Virus genome (UHGV): UHGV-0767307
From: a virus
Reading direction: 5' to 3' (one strand)
Length of the DNA stretch: 10,151 bases
Shown here: in pieces, positions 1 to 6,657 of the stretch
Numbering within the stretch: position 1 is the first letter of the stretch
Layout of the letters: each line of letters starts with the position of its first letter
Notes under the pieces: generated by a model
What the model was told of the DNA's origin: nothing
Seen by the model: only the letters and a program-made list of their open reading frames with translations
Databases searched by the model: none
Program-made: the position numbers and the translations under genes

Positions 1-199
1 ACGAATACACCGGTAACGGCGTTACGACATCGTTTCCGTATACTTTTCGAATTTTGATGTTACACAAGCGAGAAAACTTGATAAAAAAGGCTGGAACAAA
101 AAGGGGCTGTATTCAATACAGACCCCTGGTGGAATACAAGAACTATCCATCGTTTCAGAATCAGGTCTCTACATCCTTATTCTGCGTTGCAAAGAGGCA

Positions 200-634
200 A
201 TGACTGAGGGAACGAGAGCATTCAGATTTCTTGAATGGGTTACAGGTGAGGTTCTTCCTCAGATCCGCCGCACCGGAAGTTACATTAAAAACTCGCTCCC
301 GCAGGAAGAACGCATAAAGATGGTTGCCGACCAGGTAGCCAACGCCACGGCGTCAGCAGTAATGCAGGCAATGAAGATAGAGAACAAAACCTACAGTGCC
401 CCGCTGAAGCCCGGCTACCGCAGCCTGATTCATTCGCCGTCTGGTGTTCTCGGCCTGACGGAGAACTCACTGCTGATGAATCTGCTGAACCAGTTACAGG
501 ACGACGGGCACGACGTATCGGGCGCGGCGGCGGAGCTGACCACCATGTTCTGCTACATCGTCGGTGTGAGTAAATGCCTGCGTGATATCCAGACTCACGC
601 GGAGTACATCAACGACAAAGCAGGATTCTTCTGA
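200..634 (+). CDS. Bro-N-like antirepressor-family protein, probably N-terminally truncated (144 aa from the only in-frame ATG)
   Basis: ORF 200..634. The translation across the start (..ELSIVSESGLYILILRCKEA-MTEGTRAFRFLEWVTGEVLPQIRRTGSY..) matches the conserved C-terminal end of Bro-N domains (ESGLY...A..F..WV..VLP.IR..G.Y pattern, recalled, not searched). The frame is open upstream only to a TAA at 14-16, and there is no ATG/GTG/TTG in frame between 17 and 199. A hairpin follows the stop. Confidence 0.55.
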   Translation: MTEGTRAFRFLEWVTGEVLPQIRRTGSYIKNSLPQEERIKMVADQVANATASAVMQAMKIENKTYSAPLKPGYRSLIHSPSGVLGLTENSLLMNLLNQLQDDGHDVSGAAAELTTMFCYIVGVSKCLRDIQTHAEYINDKAGFF

Positions 635-642
635 CGGGCGGC

Positions 643-668
643 GGCACAGGGATGTGCCTTTAAATAAT
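643..668 (+). terminator. Possible weak intrinsic terminator after the Bro-like ORF
   Basis: Stem GGCACA (643-648) / TGTGCC (653-658) with a GGGA loop, followed by the T/A-rich run TTTAAATAATT. Lies 9 nt after the stop at 632-634. The short stem and interrupted U-tract make it weak. Confidence 0.3.
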
Positions 669-678
669 TCTGTACAGA

Positions 679-707
679 TTGCAGACTGGGGGTGAATAGC
701 GTACTAT
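679..707 (+). promoter_or_regulatory. Candidate sigma70-type promoter for the 781..1413 gene
   Basis: TTGCAG (679-684), 17-bp spacer, TACTAT (702-707). Sits in the AT-rich intergenic region about 75 nt upstream of ATG 781. Found by eye only, so the false-positive risk is high. Confidence 0.25.
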
Positions 708-780
708 TACCTCAAGGGTAAGAAAGCATTTTTAATCTTCCCTTCAAAACGCGTCCTGTAGCCAAACATGGGAGGACGAA

Positions 781-1413
781 ATGAGAACAAATACAACAAG
801 AAAAGCGATGCCATACATTATCCCAGAAGCAGATTTCGATAGAAAACTGAACATGTCTGAGAAGAACACTAGTCACACCGAAAGCTACTTAGCGAAAGGT
901 GTGGTTGATTTCGTTCTTCCGGGATTCACAACACCTTATGGTTATCGCCTTGTAAAATCTTGTAATGGCGATCATTACAGAATGATTACTACCAGCGATA
1001 CTCCAGAAACGGTGTATGCGGTTAAGTTAATCTTTCGGGAAGATATCGTCGAAGCCAAAAGAACATGTACGCAGATCATGGTATGGCGTACGCCTAATGT
1101 TATTCATGACCGTGCTGTTCATGGTTTGCCTCAGATTTTTTTTCAGTTCTTCCTAGAGCAATATGCGATCGTTGTATCTGATGAGCAACAAACAATCGAT
1201 GGGAGAAGATTCTGGGAAAGAATGATTTCTTGGGCTATAAACACCCCAGGATATAATGTATACGTTTCAGATGGCTCTGAAGAAGATAGACCTCTTAGCT
1301 TCATGACATCATGGGATGATTTCTATAGCCAGTGGGCTGATTTCTGTTGGGGCAGTGATAAAGATGTGCATACCCACAGACTACTGGTTATAAGCAAAGA
1401 TAAACTGCATTAA
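781..1413 (+). CDS. Hypothetical protein, 210 aa, no signal peptide; moron-like cargo gene of unknown function
   Basis: ORF 781..1413 with a strong Shine-Dalgarno GGAGGA (771-776) 4 nt before the ATG. GC is about 38-40%, clearly below the flanking phage genes. A classic intrinsic terminator follows directly. I recognise no family; the sequence is acidic and aromatic-rich with a C-terminal ..HTHRLLVISKDKLH. Confidence 0.75.
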   Translation: MRTNTTRKAMPYIIPEADFDRKLNMSEKNTSHTESYLAKGVVDFVLPGFTTPYGYRLVKSCNGDHYRMITTSDTPETVYAVKLIFREDIVEAKRTCTQIMVWRTPNVIHDRAVHGLPQIFFQFFLEQYAIVVSDEQQTIDGRRFWERMISWAINTPGYNVYVSDGSEEDRPLSFMTSWDDFYSQWADFCWGSDKDVHTHRLLVISKDKLH

Positions 1414-1416
1414 TAG

Positions 1417-1439
1417 AAGCCCGCAGCGCGGGCTTTTTT
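1417..1439 (+). terminator. Rho-independent terminator of the 781..1413 gene
   Basis: Perfect 8-bp stem AAGCCCGC (1417-1424) / GCGGGCTT (1428-1435) with a 3-nt loop, running into a T6 tract (1434-1439). Begins 4 nt after the TAA stop. Confidence 0.7.
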
Positions 1440-1511
1440 GTGGACGAAACAAAAGTCAGTGCTACACTCATTGACGCCACATTGAGGTGGCTTATAGATG
1501 GAAATTTCACA

Positions 1512-1673
1512 ATGAAAAAAGCATTTGCTGCACTGTTCGTTTTGTTGTCTCTGGTAGCTTCAACTCAGGCCTTTGCCGGTCGTTGTCAGCACGACAGCGA
1601 TACCGCCGCTGACGGCTCCCGCTGCGGTGGGCGTTCTGCGGATTCCCGCCCGGGCGGCGGTGGCATTCGTTAA
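1512..1673 (+). CDS. Small secreted peptide precursor (53 aa: Sec-type signal peptide plus a 31-aa Gly/Arg/Asp-rich mature part with 2 Cys)
   Basis: ATG 1512 gives MKKAFAALFVLLSLVASTQAFA|GRCQHDSDTAADGSRCGGRSADSRPGGGGIR, with a textbook n-h-c signal peptide and an AFA cleavage motif. The ORF track starts at GTG 1440, which would put 24 residues in front of the signal peptide, so ATG 1512 is preferred. The 3' half is markedly GC-rich. A 5-codon upstream ORF at 1498-1515 (MEISQ) with SD GAGGTGG overlaps the ATG. The gene is short, so a chance ORF is not excluded. Confidence 0.5.
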   Translation: MKKAFAALFVLLSLVASTQAFAGRCQHDSDTAADGSRCGGRSADSRPGGGGIR

Positions 1674-1696
1674 AAACAAGGCCGCGAAAGCGGCCT
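1671..1696 (-). terminator. Intrinsic terminator for the minus-strand gene 1710..2159 (hairpin shared with the end of the + strand peptide gene)
   Basis: Stem GGCCGC (1680-1685) / GCGGCC (1690-1695) with a GAAA tetraloop. On the - strand transcript it is followed by UUGUUUUUA (complement of 1671-1679). Lies 14 nt downstream of the - strand stop at 1710-1712. There is no U-tract on the + strand side. Confidence 0.55.
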
Positions 1697-1709
1697 GTGA
1701 CATGTCACG

Positions 1710-2159
1710 CTACTTGCGAAATCTTTCTTTACCCTTCCAGCCAGTAGATGTTAGTTCAGGATGAATGGTTCCCAATATAAAGCCAACCATAGCGGAGCGA
1801 GGATCTTCTATTTTATCCGTTAATTCTTCGGCATAACTCACAGGCAACCAAGCAACAAGATCACCAATCCTCAGCTTTGGTCCTTTGCTGTAAGATGAAT
1901 CGGCAATAACAAAAAATCCACCATCAGCTGAGCACACCTTCAGCATTGCCCTTTGTCTTCCAGAATCTAGCAAAACTGGCTGTTCCCCACTTGGACCAGG
2001 TATGATGATGGCTGGCATTGGTTTATTGGCTGAAAGGCTTGTGTCAAGATACTTACACGCATACTCAAAAGCTGAAAAGTTATCCTTAAAGATAAGAGGT
2101 TGAATTTTATTGCTAACCTCCTTACCACCGATTAATCTGTTGATCATCTTCTTGAACAT
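1710..2159 (-). CDS. Hypothetical protein, 149 aa, cytoplasmic-looking, unknown function
   Basis: Minus-strand ORF with stop at 1710-1712. The track starts at GTG 2166-2168, but the in-frame ATG at 2157-2159 is preceded by AGGTGA with a 5-nt spacer, and the GGTGA is built from that GTG, so ATG 2159 is preferred. GC about 40%. Protein MFKKMINRLIGG...; no motif recognised. Confidence 0.6.
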   Translation of the reverse strand: MFKKMINRLIGGKEVSNKIQPLIFKDNFSAFEYACKYLDTSLSANKPMPAIIIPGPSGEQPVLLDSGRQRAMLKVCSADGGFFVIADSSYSKGPKLRIGDLVAWLPVSYAEELTDKIEDPRSAMVGFILGTIHPELTSTGWKGKERFRK

Positions 2160-2171
2160 AAAGGTCACCTA

Positions 2172-2612
2172 ATGATTAAGCCGATGCACGCTATTACAGC
2201 TACCGTTTTGTTTATCCTACCAATTTTTTTGTTTGCAAACGACATATGTTTTAAGAATTTAATAAATGAGGATATGTGTGCACATGCAAACAAAATTGCA
2301 TCAGAAGCAGGAAAGTCACTTCCCATAAAATTGAATGATAATATGTCTATTGTTTCAATAAATGCAATACTAAACAAACTTTTAGTTGTAGCGCATCTTA
2401 ATTACAACAACAGCTATTTATCAAAAGTTTATAACGGTGATGTAACCTTAGAAAATAAATTAAAGAGTGTAATGCGAAATTATTCAAAATCGAGCATTTG
2501 CTCCAACAGGCAAATGAAAGCATTTATTCACCTTGGCGGAGAGATTGAATATAGGTATGTATTTAGTGATGGCAATATATTTGATACATACGCCATCACT
2601 AATTGTGAATAG
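2172..2612 (+). CDS. Secreted or membrane-anchored protein, 146 aa, AT-rich moron gene of unknown function
   Basis: ORF 2172..2612 at roughly 30-32% GC. A 146-codon open frame is very unlikely by chance at that composition (rough estimate P about 1e-5). The N-terminus MIKPMHAITATVLFILPIFLFA is a signal peptide or signal anchor. The protein is Asn/Lys/Ile-rich with 4 Cys. Its TAG stop (2610-2612) abuts the stop of the convergent 2613.. gene. Confidence 0.7.
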   Translation: MIKPMHAITATVLFILPIFLFANDICFKNLINEDMCAHANKIASEAGKSLPIKLNDNMSIVSINAILNKLLVVAHLNYNNSYLSKVYNGDVTLENKLKSVMRNYSKSSICSNRQMKAFIHLGGEIEYRYVFSDGNIFDTYAITNCE

Positions 2613-5324
2613 CTATTTCATCTGCTCTTCAACTTTATTTAGTAACGGTGATATCGCCCACAGGTTCTGAAAAGGTAGCATTTTACGGACCGCGTGGGTT
2701 TGCTGGCTGTCAAATTCTCCGTTAAGTACACCATTCGCAACCGTCGCGGCATCACCGCCAAGATCAAAGGTAGGACCAAGTAAAGCACCAATAGCATTAC
2801 GACTCTGAAACCTTGATACCGGAGGCGCACCAAACATCGCGCCAAGACCAAACCTACCGCCGCTTATGTTCTCAACGGTATTCAGCGGCTCAGAGAGCCA
2901 GCCAAGCATTCCGCCCCGGTCGATCCCCTCTTTCACAAGGTTATTCCAGCTGTAGTCGATATCGCGACCGCTTAACTTCTGTTTCATCATATAGACCATT
3001 GAGCCAAGCGCAATCGTGCCAAGCGCACCAAGATAGAATGCAGCATCGCCCTGCTGGATACCAGATACTAGCACCCTGTTATGCTGTGCGAAGATAAACG
3101 TTTTGAACTGCGTGATCATCTTCCAGCCTTCTTTACTAAAAAACAGCGGTGTATCACCTACGCCAGGCGTTACAATCACTGAGTCTACATCTTTCAGCAC
3201 TGCAGACTGGAAAATCTCTCTAGCGAAACGGTCATCCCACAGATGACTATGCCCGGTTAACAGCCCGTCCATATCCTCTCCGTGCTCCCCGAATTGCTCC
3301 CCGATTCGGCGCAGAACATCTTCATTGATGCCGACCTGTGCCATCTTCCGCATTTCACTTTTGGAGAGCGTGCCACCAGCAGAAACTTGGCGAGCCGCGT
3401 CAAGTATCCTCGACTGCACTATCATCCCGGACCATGATTTAAGTGCGCTGTTCCACTGATTCATCAGCGTCCAGTTACCGAATTTCTGCGTCATCCAGTT
3501 CAGACCTCGCTCAGCGGCGCTTCTCCGGCTATAGGGGTCAGTAAGATCCGCTATAGCCTTTGTACGCGTAGACAGGACATAATCAAGCCCAACGGCCATT
3601 TCTCGCAAATCCCTGGTTGCAATTTTCACTGAGTCCATATTTTTAAGCATGCTTACCATTGGTCCGAGAGATTTTCTCAGGCCATGCTGCATCATCGGTC
3701 GCATCAGATCAGTTGCAGCGGAGACAGTCATTCCACCAAGCAAACGGAGGAAGTTAATATTCCTAGCAACTCGCCCGGCACGAACAAAGAAACTGCGTGG
3801 ATCTTGAGGTGCACCGTAAGTACCAAGCAGTCGATCACGCATAGCCGTAATATCCCTAATATCAGCCTCCCGTTGCTTCTCAAGAACTGCACGTCGTTTA
3901 GGTGTTTTAGCCTCTTTTATTAGCCGGGTATATTCCTCACTAACCTGACGGATTTGCTCCCCCATATCTTTACGGCCAAACTGCGCAGTCAGCTCAATTT
4001 CTGGTGCCACCTGCCGGAGATAACTTTCCATGATGTAGTTAACATCTGATTCAAGAAAATCTTCTATACGCTCATCAGGAATAAGCAGCGTTCTGCTTTT
4101 AGTGAAACCAGCCCGACCAACGAGTCTCTCTGGGATAATATCGGCTGGTACAAGCCCGGAAGGTGCGCCTATTATTTTATTCACGATCTCGTCAGCAGCG
4201 TCCTCTGCTTCCTCTCGGGATAGAGGCTCCATCTGCTTCAGTGCTCGTTCGCGGCTTGCATTCAGCCTTGTGGTTGAATTTGCCCGTTTTTGCAGTCGGC
4301 GAAGCTCAGAACGATATTTCCGTGGATTATCCAGCAACTCCATATGGCGCTGATAGACAGGAAGCTCACTCTTTGCCTGCGCTATATCATCAAGGCGTGT
4401 TTTAAGGTCAGAGCTTTCTTTCATCATTCTTGCCTGAAGTTTTTCTGATGAAGTCTCGGCCAACTCTTTTTCTATTCTTGTAAGACGCGCCTGTGTGTCA
4501 GTCTCCTGAGATATAAGCTTATTTCGTTTATCCAGTTCTTCCATGAGTAGAATTTTTTTACCAGACCATTTCTCCGCTTCAGCGATTTCACTAGCGAGAG
4601 CATCAGCGCGCGGTGCCGATTCCTCTGCAGTTTTTAGCAATGAATTTATCCTTTCAATTCGCTGACCTGCTTTGTCAGCACCTTTGGCACTAATCCCTTG
4701 TATCCAGTTGGCAATTCGCCCTCTGAATTCAGTGCGGTCGGAAAGTATCTTATCGAACTTATAAATGCGGGGAAGATAACTTTTCGCCGTCACGACATCG
4801 ATATCCTCAGGAAGGATCCCCAGTTCCTGCATACGGGCTTTTGTGGTCTCGAAAATGGGGCGGATTCTGGCGGCTGCTTGTGAAACCTCAGGAATATCAC
4901 TCTGATCACCACGGCGCATAGCCATGCCAACAGCTTCATTGAAATCAATAAAGTTCATCCTCTTCACGCCGCGGGCGCTAACAGATTTGCTGTACTGCTG
5001 GTAAGCATCACGAGTGGCTTCCATCTGCTTATAAAGCATGGCGTCGTATTGCTTAATCTTAGTCTCGACTGCCGTAAACGTAGCCAACCCCTCATCATTT
5101 TTGGCGAAGAAATAGTTATTTTCGGCAAGCTGCTGGTTAATCTGACGGGAGACAAGAGATGGTGATTGAGCCAAGCGGCCAGCAGGAGTGACACTCAACG
5201 TTTTGTTAGCAAGTCCAAGTCCAGCGAGCTGTTCCTGATCGAGTGTGGTATTGAAAACCTGAGCTGCACCAATGCTTTGAGGAGAATCCATACCTCGCAA
5301 ATGATTACCTACTGAGTTAACCAC
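2613..5324 (-). CDS. C-terminal portion (903-codon ORF) of a large internal-virion / ejection-like protein gene split by a tandem duplication
   Basis: The open frame 2613..5324 begins at GTG 5322-5324 (first ATG at 5289-5291), neither with a convincing Shine-Dalgarno. Its first 188 residues are identical to the last residues of ORF 5392..6657 because of the 655-bp repeat. Removing one copy joins the two ORFs in frame. It contains a long charged coiled-coil-like region (..ELDKRNKLISQETDTQARLTRIEKELAETSSEKLQARMMKESSDLKTRLDD..) and a Gly-rich C-terminal end. Confidence 0.7.
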   Translation of the reverse strand: MVNSVGNHLRGMDSPQSIGAAQVFNTTLDQEQLAGLGLANKTLSVTPAGRLAQSPSLVSRQINQQLAENNYFFAKNDEGLATFTAVETKIKQYDAMLYKQMEATRDAYQQYSKSVSARGVKRMNFIDFNEAVGMAMRRGDQSDIPEVSQAAARIRPIFETTKARMQELGILPEDIDVVTAKSYLPRIYKFDKILSDRTEFRGRIANWIQGISAKGADKAGQRIERINSLLKTAEESAPRADALASEIAEAEKWSGKKILLMEELDKRNKLISQETDTQARLTRIEKELAETSSEKLQARMMKESSDLKTRLDDIAQAKSELPVYQRHMELLDNPRKYRSELRRLQKRANSTTRLNASRERALKQMEPLSREEAEDAADEIVNKIIGAPSGLVPADIIPERLVGRAGFTKSRTLLIPDERIEDFLESDVNYIMESYLRQVAPEIELTAQFGRKDMGEQIRQVSEEYTRLIKEAKTPKRRAVLEKQREADIRDITAMRDRLLGTYGAPQDPRSFFVRAGRVARNINFLRLLGGMTVSAATDLMRPMMQHGLRKSLGPMVSMLKNMDSVKIATRDLREMAVGLDYVLSTRTKAIADLTDPYSRRSAAERGLNWMTQKFGNWTLMNQWNSALKSWSGMIVQSRILDAARQVSAGGTLSKSEMRKMAQVGINEDVLRRIGEQFGEHGEDMDGLLTGHSHLWDDRFAREIFQSAVLKDVDSVIVTPGVGDTPLFFSKEGWKMITQFKTFIFAQHNRVLVSGIQQGDAAFYLGALGTIALGSMVYMMKQKLSGRDIDYSWNNLVKEGIDRGGMLGWLSEPLNTVENISGGRFGLGAMFGAPPVSRFQSRNAIGALLGPTFDLGGDAATVANGVLNGEFDSQQTHAVRKMLPFQNLWAISPLLNKVEEQMK

Positions 5325-5411
5325 TGCCTCGCGCGCGCTAGGTCCAGCAAGTAGCTGTGCACCAGCACCAAGGATCCCACCAACGAGAGCATCAACAACA
5401 ACGTTCGATAC
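4757..5411. repeat. Tandem direct repeat, copy A (655 bp)
   Basis: Identical to 5412-6066 wherever I compared the two copies in 60-nt blocks across the whole unit. Flanking bases differ (4756 A vs 5411 C; 5412 A vs 6067 G), so the boundaries are exact and the copies sit head-to-tail with no spacer. Confidence 0.9.
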
Positions 5412-6657
5412 ACTTATAAATGCGGGGAAGATAACTTTTCGCCGTCACGACATCGATATCCTCAGGAAGGATCCCCAGTTCCTGCATACGGGCTTTTGTG
5501 GTCTCGAAAATGGGGCGGATTCTGGCGGCTGCTTGTGAAACCTCAGGAATATCACTCTGATCACCACGGCGCATAGCCATGCCAACAGCTTCATTGAAAT
5601 CAATAAAGTTCATCCTCTTCACGCCGCGGGCGCTAACAGATTTGCTGTACTGCTGGTAAGCATCACGAGTGGCTTCCATCTGCTTATAAAGCATGGCGTC
5701 GTATTGCTTAATCTTAGTCTCGACTGCCGTAAACGTAGCCAACCCCTCATCATTTTTGGCGAAGAAATAGTTATTTTCGGCAAGCTGCTGGTTAATCTGA
5801 CGGGAGACAAGAGATGGTGATTGAGCCAAGCGGCCAGCAGGAGTGACACTCAACGTTTTGTTAGCAAGTCCAAGTCCAGCGAGCTGTTCCTGATCGAGTG
5901 TGGTATTGAAAACCTGAGCTGCACCAATGCTTTGAGGAGAATCCATACCTCGCAAATGATTACCTACTGAGTTAACCACTGCCTCGCGCGCGCTAGGTCC
6001 AGCAAGTAGCTGTGCACCAGCACCAAGGATCCCACCAACGAGAGCATCAACAACAACGTTCGATACGCTCTCCATCGGTGAGCGAGCTTCCTGAGTGGCC
6101 TGTAATGCGGCTTCTGATACTCCCCCACCAGCAGCATTCGCCAGGGCAAAACGCCCTGCCGTCTCAGCAATACTTCCTCCACGCGCTACCGCCCCTACAG
6201 GGATAAACATTGCAGCCACATTAACCGGGTCTATCATTCCCATTGCTAAGCTTGAAATAGTACCAGCACCACCCATTTCAGATAGATATTCTCTATCTGT
6301 TCTTTGCTTATCGATTCGATGTTTAATTGCCATTGTTTCTTCATGCGAACCGGAGTTGATAAACGAATCTGCAAAATCTTCATAGCCTTTAATATCTGCT
6401 GCATCGTTATCAAATGGGTTATATCCTTCAACCCTGTCAAACTGACTGAAAGGAGCACTGGCAATAAAGCTACCCAGCGTGTTATCTATACGAAATGCTG
6501 CTTGTCTAGACCTTTGAACGCGTTGATCACTGGTAAATGGGTTCACAGCAGAAAGCAAAGAAGGTGTTTCCATATAGAAATTACTGTCATCAGGTGCTGC
6601 TATTTGCTGAATATCCTCGCCAAGCAACTCTTTAGGATCCTGTTCATATATCGGCAT
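5392..6657 (-). CDS. N-terminal portion (421-codon ORF) of the same large virion protein gene, ending prematurely just after the duplication junction
   Basis: ATG at 6655-6657 overlaps the TAA of the upstream 915-aa gene (TAATG). The frame runs through copy B, crosses the junction at 5411/5412 out of frame and stops after 6 aberrant codons (..YLPRIYK-CIERCC*). It contains Gly/Ala-rich hydrophobic segments (..GGAGTISSLAMGMIDPVNVAAMFIPVGAVARGG.., ..LVGGILGAGAQLLAG..), consistent with a membrane-interacting ejection protein. Confidence 0.7.
   Translation of the reverse strand: MPIYEQDPKELLGEDIQQIAAPDDSNFYMETPSLLSAVNPFTSDQRVQRSRQAAFRIDNTLGSFIASAPFSQFDRVEGYNPFDNDAADIKGYEDFADSFINSGSHEETMAIKHRIDKQRTDREYLSEMGGAGTISSLAMGMIDPVNVAAMFIPVGAVARGGSIAETAGRFALANAAGGGVSEAALQATQEARSPMESVSNVVVDALVGGILGAGAQLLAGPSAREAVVNSVGNHLRGMDSPQSIGAAQVFNTTLDQEQLAGLGLANKTLSVTPAGRLAQSPSLVSRQINQQLAENNYFFAKNDEGLATFTAVETKIKQYDAMLYKQMEATRDAYQQYSKSVSARGVKRMNFIDFNEAVGMAMRRGDQSDIPEVSQAAARIRPIFETTKARMQELGILPEDIDVVTAKSYLPRIYKCIERCC
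5412..6066. repeat. Tandem direct repeat, copy B (655 bp)
   Basis: Second copy of the 655-bp unit. 655 = 3x218+1, so reading through both copies shifts the frame by +1. The track ORFs 4964..5194 and 5619..5849 are identical 76-aa by-products of the repeat. Confidence 0.9.

Follow-up and report, generated by a model that had tools for sequence, protein, structure and literature searches.

The window analysed here, a 10,151-nucleotide (nt) stretch of the virus genome UHGV-0767307, is part of an Escherichia coli prophage resembling the Uetakevirus phages epsilon15 and phiV10, and at positions 1512–1673 it carries the gene of a 53-residue precursor, the single open reading frame (ORF) of a small cassette. 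Bro-N/antirepressor-like genes lie to the left and the genes of large internal virion proteins to the right. A preliminary description of the locus, made from the letters alone, had proposed a secreted two-cysteine peptide preceded by a translationally coupled five-codon upstream ORF (uORF), and all positions given in it were found to be correct, namely GAGGTGG at 1484–1490, the ATG at 1498 opening MEISQ, the TGA overlapping the ATG at 1512, and the 53-residue ORF itself. It is confirmed by comparative data far beyond chance that ORF 1512–1673 is a genuine coding gene, the parts of which are as follows.

1512–1673, plus strand: coding sequence of the 53-residue precursor MKKAFAALFVLLSLVASTQAFAGRCQHDSDTAADGSRCGGRSADSRPGGGGIR, from ATG 1512 to TAA 1673, stop codon included.
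1512–1577, plus strand: predicted Sec signal peptide MKKAFAALFVLLSLVASTQAFA, with predicted cleavage by signal peptidase I after AFA (Ala22).
1578–1670, plus strand: predicted mature 31-residue peptide GRCQHDSDTAADGSRCGGRSADSRPGGGGIR, with the core C25-x12-C38, DGSRCG, R41, D44, R46 and PGG.

The coding status is settled by comparative evidence, i.e. a single open frame and purifying selection, and not by the length of the ORF, since the window holds 69 ORFs of at least 40 residues and one of 53 codons is by itself not beyond chance. The annotated frame alone lacks stop codons in all 13 enterobacterial lineages compared, and the overlapping ORFs of the window are closed in the relatives. Over the 25 codons of the core in 15 enterobacterial coding sequences, synonymous divergence (pS) amounts to 0.71, with synonymous sites near saturation, and non-synonymous divergence (pN) to 0.10; third positions vary in all 25 codons, first positions in 10 and second positions in eight. 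Between the window and the Buttiauxella copy this core has accumulated 15 synonymous and no non-synonymous changes. The closest relatives of the cassette, in E. coli Uetakevirus-like phages and prophages, are 97–99% identical, those of Klebsiella share about 70% DNA identity, and the ORF is intact in both. The G+C content of the DNA encoding the mature peptide (1578–1670) is 71%, compared with 44% for the signal-peptide part, 37–41% for the flanks and 47% for the whole window, so that the GC-rich 3′ half within AT-richer surroundings had been seen rightly. In the mature part first and second codon positions reach 74% and 77% G+C, respectively; the enrichment is therefore due to codons for Gly, Arg, Ala, Pro and Asp. 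A longer reading of 77 residues from GTG 1440 (cf. PHROG 3117) was rejected, as the in-frame upstream stretch is unconserved and all homologues begin at the methionine of MKK.

The same comparison bears on the reading in which it is RNA or DNA that is conserved, be it as a small RNA, as hairpins or as a site bound by a protein, and the ORF is incidental. The region does fold somewhat better than shuffled sequences (z −2.1), it contains hairpins and a palindrome, and other frames of the window hold overlapping ORFs. Nevertheless, the changes are concentrated at third codon positions, the amino acids are kept at saturated synonymous divergence, the alternative frames do not stay open in relatives, and the peptide is retained across phyla in unrelated DNA; moreover, window positions 1–3000 gave no Rfam match at an expect value (E) of ≤1. 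An element acting through RNA or DNA alone is already refuted by the substitution pattern together with the frame test, barring an additional RNA function, and its remaining probability is negligible.

As a predicted protein, the product has been catalogued before. RefSeq WP_000708858.1 (‘hypothetical protein’) and gp43 of phage TL-2011b, YP_007001994.1 (‘putative transmembrane anchored protein’), have the identical sequence, and the product matches PHROG 14503 (‘membrane associated protein’, moron category) over residues 1–53 of 53 with E 2.3e-40. The identical protein occurs on at least 1000 contigs and in UniRef entries, and the region was matched in 549 of 5426 complete E. coli genomes. 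The entries named ‘transmembrane anchored protein’ in NCBI and UniRef, like PHROG 14503, represent the same protein as that of the window, with identical amino-acid sequence; the names in these three resources were assigned automatically and do not rest on a tested function. Scans of the peptide and its multidomain relatives with Pfam (to E ≤ 1), NCBIfam and PADLOC found no model covering the core, none of the PADLOC anti-phage defence families matches the peptide, and a sequence search of PDB returned nothing at E ≤ 10.

The N-terminal segment has the features of a Sec signal peptide, with KK in the n-region, a hydrophobic or uncharged run of about 14–16 residues, and then A-F-A|G. Among 100 family members, every one has at least one Lys or Arg within the first seven residues, and the uncharged run averages about 16 residues. 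The predicted cleavage site is conserved in the same set, with Ala, Ser or Val at −3 in 99%, Ala at −1 in 94% and Gly at +1 in 99%, which bears out the canonical Sec signal peptide proposed in the preliminary description; position +2 is Asn, Pro, Arg or Ser in 97%. Furthermore, pN/pS is 0.33 in this segment and 0.15 in the core, and because signal peptides typically show such a higher ratio, the segment is taken to be one. A lipoprotein processed by signal peptidase II was considered and rejected; in ...QAFAG-R-C the cysteine stands two residues past the cleavage point, and there is no lipobox.

If the segment were left uncleaved, it would act as a signal anchor, and the product would be a 53-residue inner-membrane protein with a periplasmic tail of 31 residues. 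The NCBI, UniRef and PHROG names, with their ‘transmembrane anchored’ or membrane-associated wording, speak for this and thus against the cleavage preferred here; in addition, AlphaFold2 (AF2) places a helix at residues 2–16, and some family members have a real membrane helix joined to the core. On the other hand, the run is short and is followed directly by the conserved signal-peptidase-I site, the hydrophobic segment evolves much faster than the core, and the name appears to be an automatic label for which a literature search gave no supporting paper. An anchored protein is accordingly rated as unlikely, a cleaved Sec signal peptide is predicted instead of a membrane anchor, and ‘transmembrane anchored’ is probably a misnomer given the conserved cleavage site.

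The mature peptide is rich in Gly, Arg and Asp, as first described, and consists of 8 Gly, 5 Arg, 4 Asp, 4 Ser, 3 Ala and 2 Cys among its 31 residues, without a hydrophobic core. Its net charge is about +1, and it presents no amphipathic or hydrophobic surface. The residues C25, A32, G35, S36, C38, R41, R46, G48 and G49 are invariant in 100 sequences, the spacing between the two cysteines is 12 in 129 of 130 cores, and the pattern of the core can be written G-[NPR]-C-x-H-x2-[DQ]-x-A-x-DGS-x-CG-x-R-[SA]-[AS]-D-x-R-P-GG. Most members have a mature peptide of 27 residues, the GGIR tail of the window being a lineage-specific extension. The ‘poly-Gly tail’ of the preliminary description is a four-residue addition, GG-x-R, that follows the invariant PGG and is shared by 23 of the 100 members. 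The AF2 model, built on the 100-sequence alignment, has a predicted local distance difference test score (pLDDT) of 80–86 over the core and shows a small bridge between residues 31 and 37 and two short turns.

The core is an ancient and, for its size, unusually widespread and strongly conserved mini-domain without a family model or structure. In a taxon scan using one genome per species it was found in Enterobacterales, Tolumonas, Vibrio, many Hyphomicrobiales, cyanobacteria, Bacteriovorax and Polyangia; it is also present in Pasteurellaceae. A profile search of 1.84 billion representatives yielded 356 clusters (50% identity) at E ≤ 1e-3, and a word-indexed search yielded 863 clusters at 90% identity. 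On its own the core is present in hundreds of bacterial lineages, and it is also found fused to periplasmic or membrane proteins. Among the matches listed, the commonest form has about 50 residues and consists of the signal peptide and the core standing alone (83 of 182 classified sequences). In the other architectures the core stands at the C-terminus of longer proteins, occurs in tandem, or forms the mature N-terminus ahead of a membrane helix and a cytoplasmic region; because a membrane helix follows the core in these last members, the core is placed outside the cytoplasm.

A variant with four cysteines, C-P-C-P-Y...GSRCGGRSAYSRPGG...C, is found at the end of proteins with bacterial SH3 domains. 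Its pattern, as seen in P0203, P0182, P0126, P0145 and P0168, is C-[PA]-C-P-Y-x-x-A-x-[ND]GS-x-CG-x-RSA-[YW]-S-[RK]-x-GG-x-x-P-x-C-Y, and this form is C-terminal or in tandem, sometimes preceded by bacterial SH3 domains, and has no Pfam coverage. In P0182 an Excalibur-like stretch, not called by Pfam, lies upstream of the four-cysteine core.

The conserved unit around the gene extends from about 1417 to about 1718, with the following features at its edges.

1417–1439, plus strand: intrinsic terminator of the upstream gene 781–1413, with stem AAGCCCGC/GCGGGCTT, loop AGC and then a T-run.
1679–1696, no strand assigned: GC-rich terminator stem-loop AGGCCGCGAAAGCGGCCT, common to the convergent genes; the minus-strand terminator was found by scan.
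1697–1708, no strand assigned: perfect palindrome of 12 bp, GTGACATGTCAC, which immediately follows the terminator stem at the cassette's right edge.

The inverted repeat of the left terminator (1417–1424/1428–1435) is 100% complementary and its T-run can be read directly; in phages with other upstream genes the matches begin at window position 1417–1418, which makes this terminator the left edge of the conserved cassette. The right-hand stem-loop is annotated as a terminator in phiV10, and in relatives it is followed by CCTTTTTT (L005, L006, L013 and L016), with several having T-runs on both sides. The genes flanking the cassette vary, being YafO toxin and Ant in TL-2011b, DUF2335 in a Klebsiella phage and others in the window. 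Phage phiV10 and the O157 typing phages do not have the peptide gene; they keep its last ~22 nt, the terminator and the palindrome (in phiV10, L069, at 1501–1561, corresponding to window 1651–1711), which suggests gene loss by deletion or cassette exchange at this point. An exact copy of the palindrome GTGACATGTCAC is found at the same place, once per locus, in the loci of E. coli, Klebsiella, Kluyvera and Buttiauxella; it could serve to bind a protein or mark a boundary at which the cassette recombines.

Morons were reportedly defined by Hendrix and co-workers as autonomous promoter–gene–terminator cassettes in lambdoid prophages. The present cassette is variably present among relatives, being absent from phiV10, and it has variable flanks and an atypical G+C content; both flanking terminators are present and a −10-like box is conserved, with a strict sigma-70 scan negative. 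Judged from these sequence characters, the cassette is taken to be a prophage moron, an element of an ordinary, known kind. The location in a prophage accessory region, asserted in the preliminary description, is supported by the Uetakevirus-like setting, the flanks and the PHROG category.

The leader of the gene was compared in 17 homologous leaders, i.e. the window and 16 other loci, and contains four elements.

1460–1468, plus strand: putative extended −10 element TGCTACACT, consisting of TACACT at 1463–1468 preceded by TG.
1476–1491, plus strand: leader stem-loop GCCAC-ATTGAG-GTGGC, −8.4 kcal/mol.
1498–1515, plus strand: five-codon uORF MEISQ, unconserved, with its TGA at 1513–1515 overlapping the main ATG as ATGA.
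1499–1504, plus strand: weak Shine-Dalgarno-like (SD-like) TGGAAA, 7 nt before ATG 1512, the E. coli form of a GG[AT]AAG/AAGGA box.

A TAnnnT hexamer lies 45–53 nt upstream of the ATG and 5–7 nt before the hairpin in 14 of 16 loci compared, and in the window a weak −35-like TTGTGG is found at 1437–1442. The hairpin is the predicted fold at the same position in almost all of the 17 loci, with stems that differ in sequence (GCCGTCA/TGATGGC, GCCGC/GCGGC, TTGCC/GGCAA and others) and keep their pairing. RNAalifold showed compensatory changes at all four predicted pairs, and the hairpin region folds better than shuffled sequences in 13 of 14 lineages (mean z −2.3). With the predicted transcription start just upstream, the hairpin at 1476–1491 may be a 5′-terminal stabilising stem-loop of a short mRNA.

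According to the preliminary description, GAGGTGG is the best SD sequence of the region and loads ribosomes on the uORF at ATG 1498, whose stop codon, by its overlap, would deliver them to ATG 1512 or regulate its use. In the window the geometry is indeed a textbook one: GAGGTGG lies 7 nt before ATG 1498, the spacing and the stop–start overlap are those of a coupled leader ORF, and the main ATG has only the weak SD-like TGGA. The −14 position of the upstream ATG and the five-codon length recur in Kluyvera (L008) and Enterobacter (L013). However, it is only in E. coli and these two lineages that the ATGA arrangement exists, and the three encoded peptides MEISQ, MVSKK and MDTKR are unrelated; start, frame and stop position of the uORF are not conserved among the 17 leaders. 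In Klebsiella the upstream ATG is at −13 and opens a 27-codon out-of-frame ORF, in L005 and L006 it is at −12 and in frame, six of the 16 other loci lack any ATG in the 40 nt before the start, and the sole ATG of L017, at −28, is out of frame. The upstream ATG belongs to a CA[CT]ATGG[AT]AAG box of one subgroup, and its position is not fixed.

The sequence and position of GAGGTGG therefore stand as first described, but its role as a conserved SD does not, since it is made up of the loop and 3′ arm of a hairpin that is kept by compensatory change and GAGG occurs in the leader of E. coli only. A purine-rich box containing GG is present 6–10 nt before the start in most lineages, and the TGGAAA type of this box appears to be the more consistent candidate for the ribosome-binding site. 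AU-rich leaders can support translation initiation without coupling, and the AU-rich leader here, together with the AAA AAA codons after the ATG, could do so. Control by the uORF as a designed feature is thus not upheld and is considered improbable; on the evidence of the compared leaders, the uORF and its coupling are not a selected feature and are an accident of the E. coli leader sequence, in which the uORF may still be translated.

Clues to the function of the peptide were sought among its partners. No conserved partner gene was found by BLAST clustering of the neighbours at 57 loci or by a Pfam scan of 148 neighbours. Among 92 multidomain members, SH3_3/SH3_4 and PG_binding_1/2 are the sole Pfam co-domains to recur, and the co-domains and neighbours together point weakly to the envelope or cell wall.

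The absence of a recurrent partner argues against a RiPP (ribosomally synthesised and post-translationally modified peptide), bacteriocin or signalling system. The corresponding alternative, in which the gene encodes the precursor of a secreted bioactive product, be it a RiPP, a bacteriocin or toxin, or a quorum or phage-communication signal, that would undergo further processing or leave the cell, would agree with the small size, the two-cysteine loop, the Gly-rich C-terminus and the prophage location, and some RiPPs are Sec-dependent. Yet the neighbourhoods of the 57 loci have no recurring gene for a modifying enzyme, a dedicated transporter, immunity or a receptor, and the near-invariance of the core across phyla combined with a variable leader is the reverse of what RiPPs and signals show. 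The charge and the surface of the peptide are unlike those of membrane-active toxins, and the same core serves as a building block of larger periplasmic proteins. A bioactive product is consequently regarded as very unlikely.

Several individual neighbourhoods may be described here. In Microvirga (L062 1-10162) the stand-alone gene is located inside a prophage, between genes for an SLT-domain protein and a lysozyme/holin; capture by temperate phages is therefore not limited to Enterobacterales. The nearest neighbour in Devosia submarina (L021 4210-4539) and Kaistia granuli (L033 4507-4842) encodes a periplasmic immunity protein of the Rap1a family (E 1.7e-21 and 4.9e-17, respectively); proteins of this family act against type VI amidase effectors. 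In Rodentibacter (L067/L068 5001-5369) the gene of a secreted Excalibur-domain protein follows immediately, the A of its ATG being also the final base of the stop codon of the peptide gene, and in Aureimonas (L050 and L056), a lineage unrelated to Rodentibacter, peptide copies adjoin genes for small secreted Excalibur-domain proteins.

The following model is proposed. A promoter just past the upstream terminator would give a short mRNA of about 220 nt, with the stem-loop 1476–1491 at its 5′ end, one ORF at 1512–1673 and its end at the shared terminator 1679–1696. The 53-residue product would be exported by Sec and cut by signal peptidase I after Ala22, and C25 and C38 would form a disulfide in the periplasm, resulting in a hydrophilic mature peptide of about 31 residues. 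This peptide would stay in the envelope and bind a component common to many bacteria, possibly peptidoglycan, a peptidoglycan-processing enzyme or a metal ion. As a result, the lysogen would acquire a trait that acts at the envelope, e.g. protection against incoming phage or against the wall-degrading enzymes of competitors, so that the prophage would use the peptide as a lysogenic-conversion factor, with the five-codon uORF outside the mechanism.

Coding status, family membership, the structure of the cassette, the conservation of the signal-peptidase site and of the hairpin and the non-conservation of the uORF are direct observations in this model, and promoter, transcription start, export, cleavage, disulfide, periplasmic residence and envelope binding are what we infer from them. 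As a whole, a moron cassette with an exported, envelope-binding disulfide peptide and an accidental uORF is judged somewhat more probable than all else taken together; the last step, binding of a widely conserved envelope component in the periplasm, is put forward with low confidence.

A number of observations weigh against the model. Many members of the family are chromosomal and lie outside prophages, e.g. beside bacA and ffh, so that superinfection exclusion, or any other role confined to phages, is not the general function of the family. Outside the shared enterobacterial prophage backbone no family occurs in more than two of the 148 neighbours; the co-domains amount to seven domain matches among 92 proteins, some perhaps in the same protein, and the neighbours are scattered. 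The strict sigma-70 scan gave no promoter at this place, where the −35 is poor and the spacer measures 19 nt, and in the window the terminator 1679–1696 has its T-run on the minus strand only and none on the plus strand. No relative of known function was found by sequence or by structure/fold comparison, and a literature search returned no relevant paper on the motif, the accession, the database name or Uetakevirus morons.

A bolder version of the model, which we hold to be rather doubtful, would describe the core as an undescribed, ancient periplasmic mini-domain of about 27 residues with one disulfide and a universal envelope ligand, captured by phages as a periplasmic decoy or inhibitor moron. 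It is equally speculative, as parts of this same version, that the ligand would be a peptidoglycan element, a wall-remodelling enzyme or a divalent metal, and, with no firmer standing, that the capture was by temperate phages of both Enterobacterales and Alphaproteobacteria. The decoy might be directed against ejection proteins with which superinfecting phages degrade the wall, or against competitors' amidase effectors, a proposal which is just as tentative.

Three further features were noticed elsewhere in the window. Positions 4757–5411 and 5412–6066 form a perfect head-to-tail duplication of 655 bp with 100% identity; as 655 is not a multiple of three, the gene of the large internal virion protein is split into the ORFs 2613–5324 and 5392–6657, both on the minus strand, with a common repeated protein segment, and the duplication is either the mark of a defective prophage or an assembly artefact. 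An ORF of 146 residues at 2172–2612 on the plus strand, with an N-terminal hydrophobic segment, lies in the stretch of lowest G+C (29–33%) of the window and matches PHROG 8772 (unknown function), with otherwise only a weak Ntox35 match (E 0.056); it is probably a second moron. Finally, an ORF of 144 residues at 200–634 on the plus strand matches only the C-terminal parts of anti-repressor (Ant) PHROGs and has the look of an antirepressor gene that was truncated or recombined.

In the gene content of bacteria and phages no part is understood less well than the small exported proteins, and the present one is common, being found in about 10% of complete E. coli genomes and belonging to a family of more than 800 protein clusters across phyla. 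If its target were found, a new periplasmic domain could be named and a widespread lysogenic-conversion gene explained. The value of the locus lies in this uncharacterised mini-domain and not in the leader, from which it can nevertheless be learned that a textbook-looking arrangement of SD, uORF and ATGA can be an accident of a structured leader, and that a dozen homologous leaders suffice to show it.

Comparison with known systems gives resemblances at several levels. Excalibur (PF05901, DxDxDGxxCE) is, like the core, small, secreted and bounded by cysteines, and by eye the D-x-A-x-D-G-x-x-C of the core lines up with its D-x-D-x-D-G-x-x-C; the core differs in having an invariant Ala in place of the third liganding Asp and an invariant Arg where the EF-hand Glu would stand. 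Membership in Excalibur was rejected, as the core, reading D-T-A-A-D-G-S-R-C-G, gave no Pfam match at E ≤ 1.

With regard to phage proteins of the envelope, Spackle of phage T4 is a small periplasmic protein that inhibits the gp5 lysozyme of an incoming phage, and Cor/Llp are phage lipoproteins that protect the cell at its envelope. The peptide has in common with them that it is phage-encoded, small and, as predicted, exported. It differs in showing no sequence or fold similarity to them and in not being a lipoprotein, and its family is common outside prophages. The virion of the window prophage has a large internal protein resembling ejection proteins that bear lytic transglycosylases, and superinfection exclusion in the manner of Spackle would, by analogy, be an attractive special case of the proposed model.

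The leader finds its counterpart in the ompA 5′ untranslated region, where a 5′-terminal stem-loop stabilises the mRNA of E. coli. Leaders of this type and that of the cassette are alike in having a GC-rich hairpin at or near the predicted 5′ end, 5–7 nt after a −10-like box; the hairpin of the cassette is kept by covariation, and the likeness is one of functional analogy that includes a predicted transcription start. The cassette itself compares with the morons of lambdoid prophages, differing in that its promoter is a putative one, a consensus-like match. Like them, it places a single small gene of atypical composition between terminators, with a −10-like box of its own, and it sits between conserved phage modules, present in some close relatives and absent from others.

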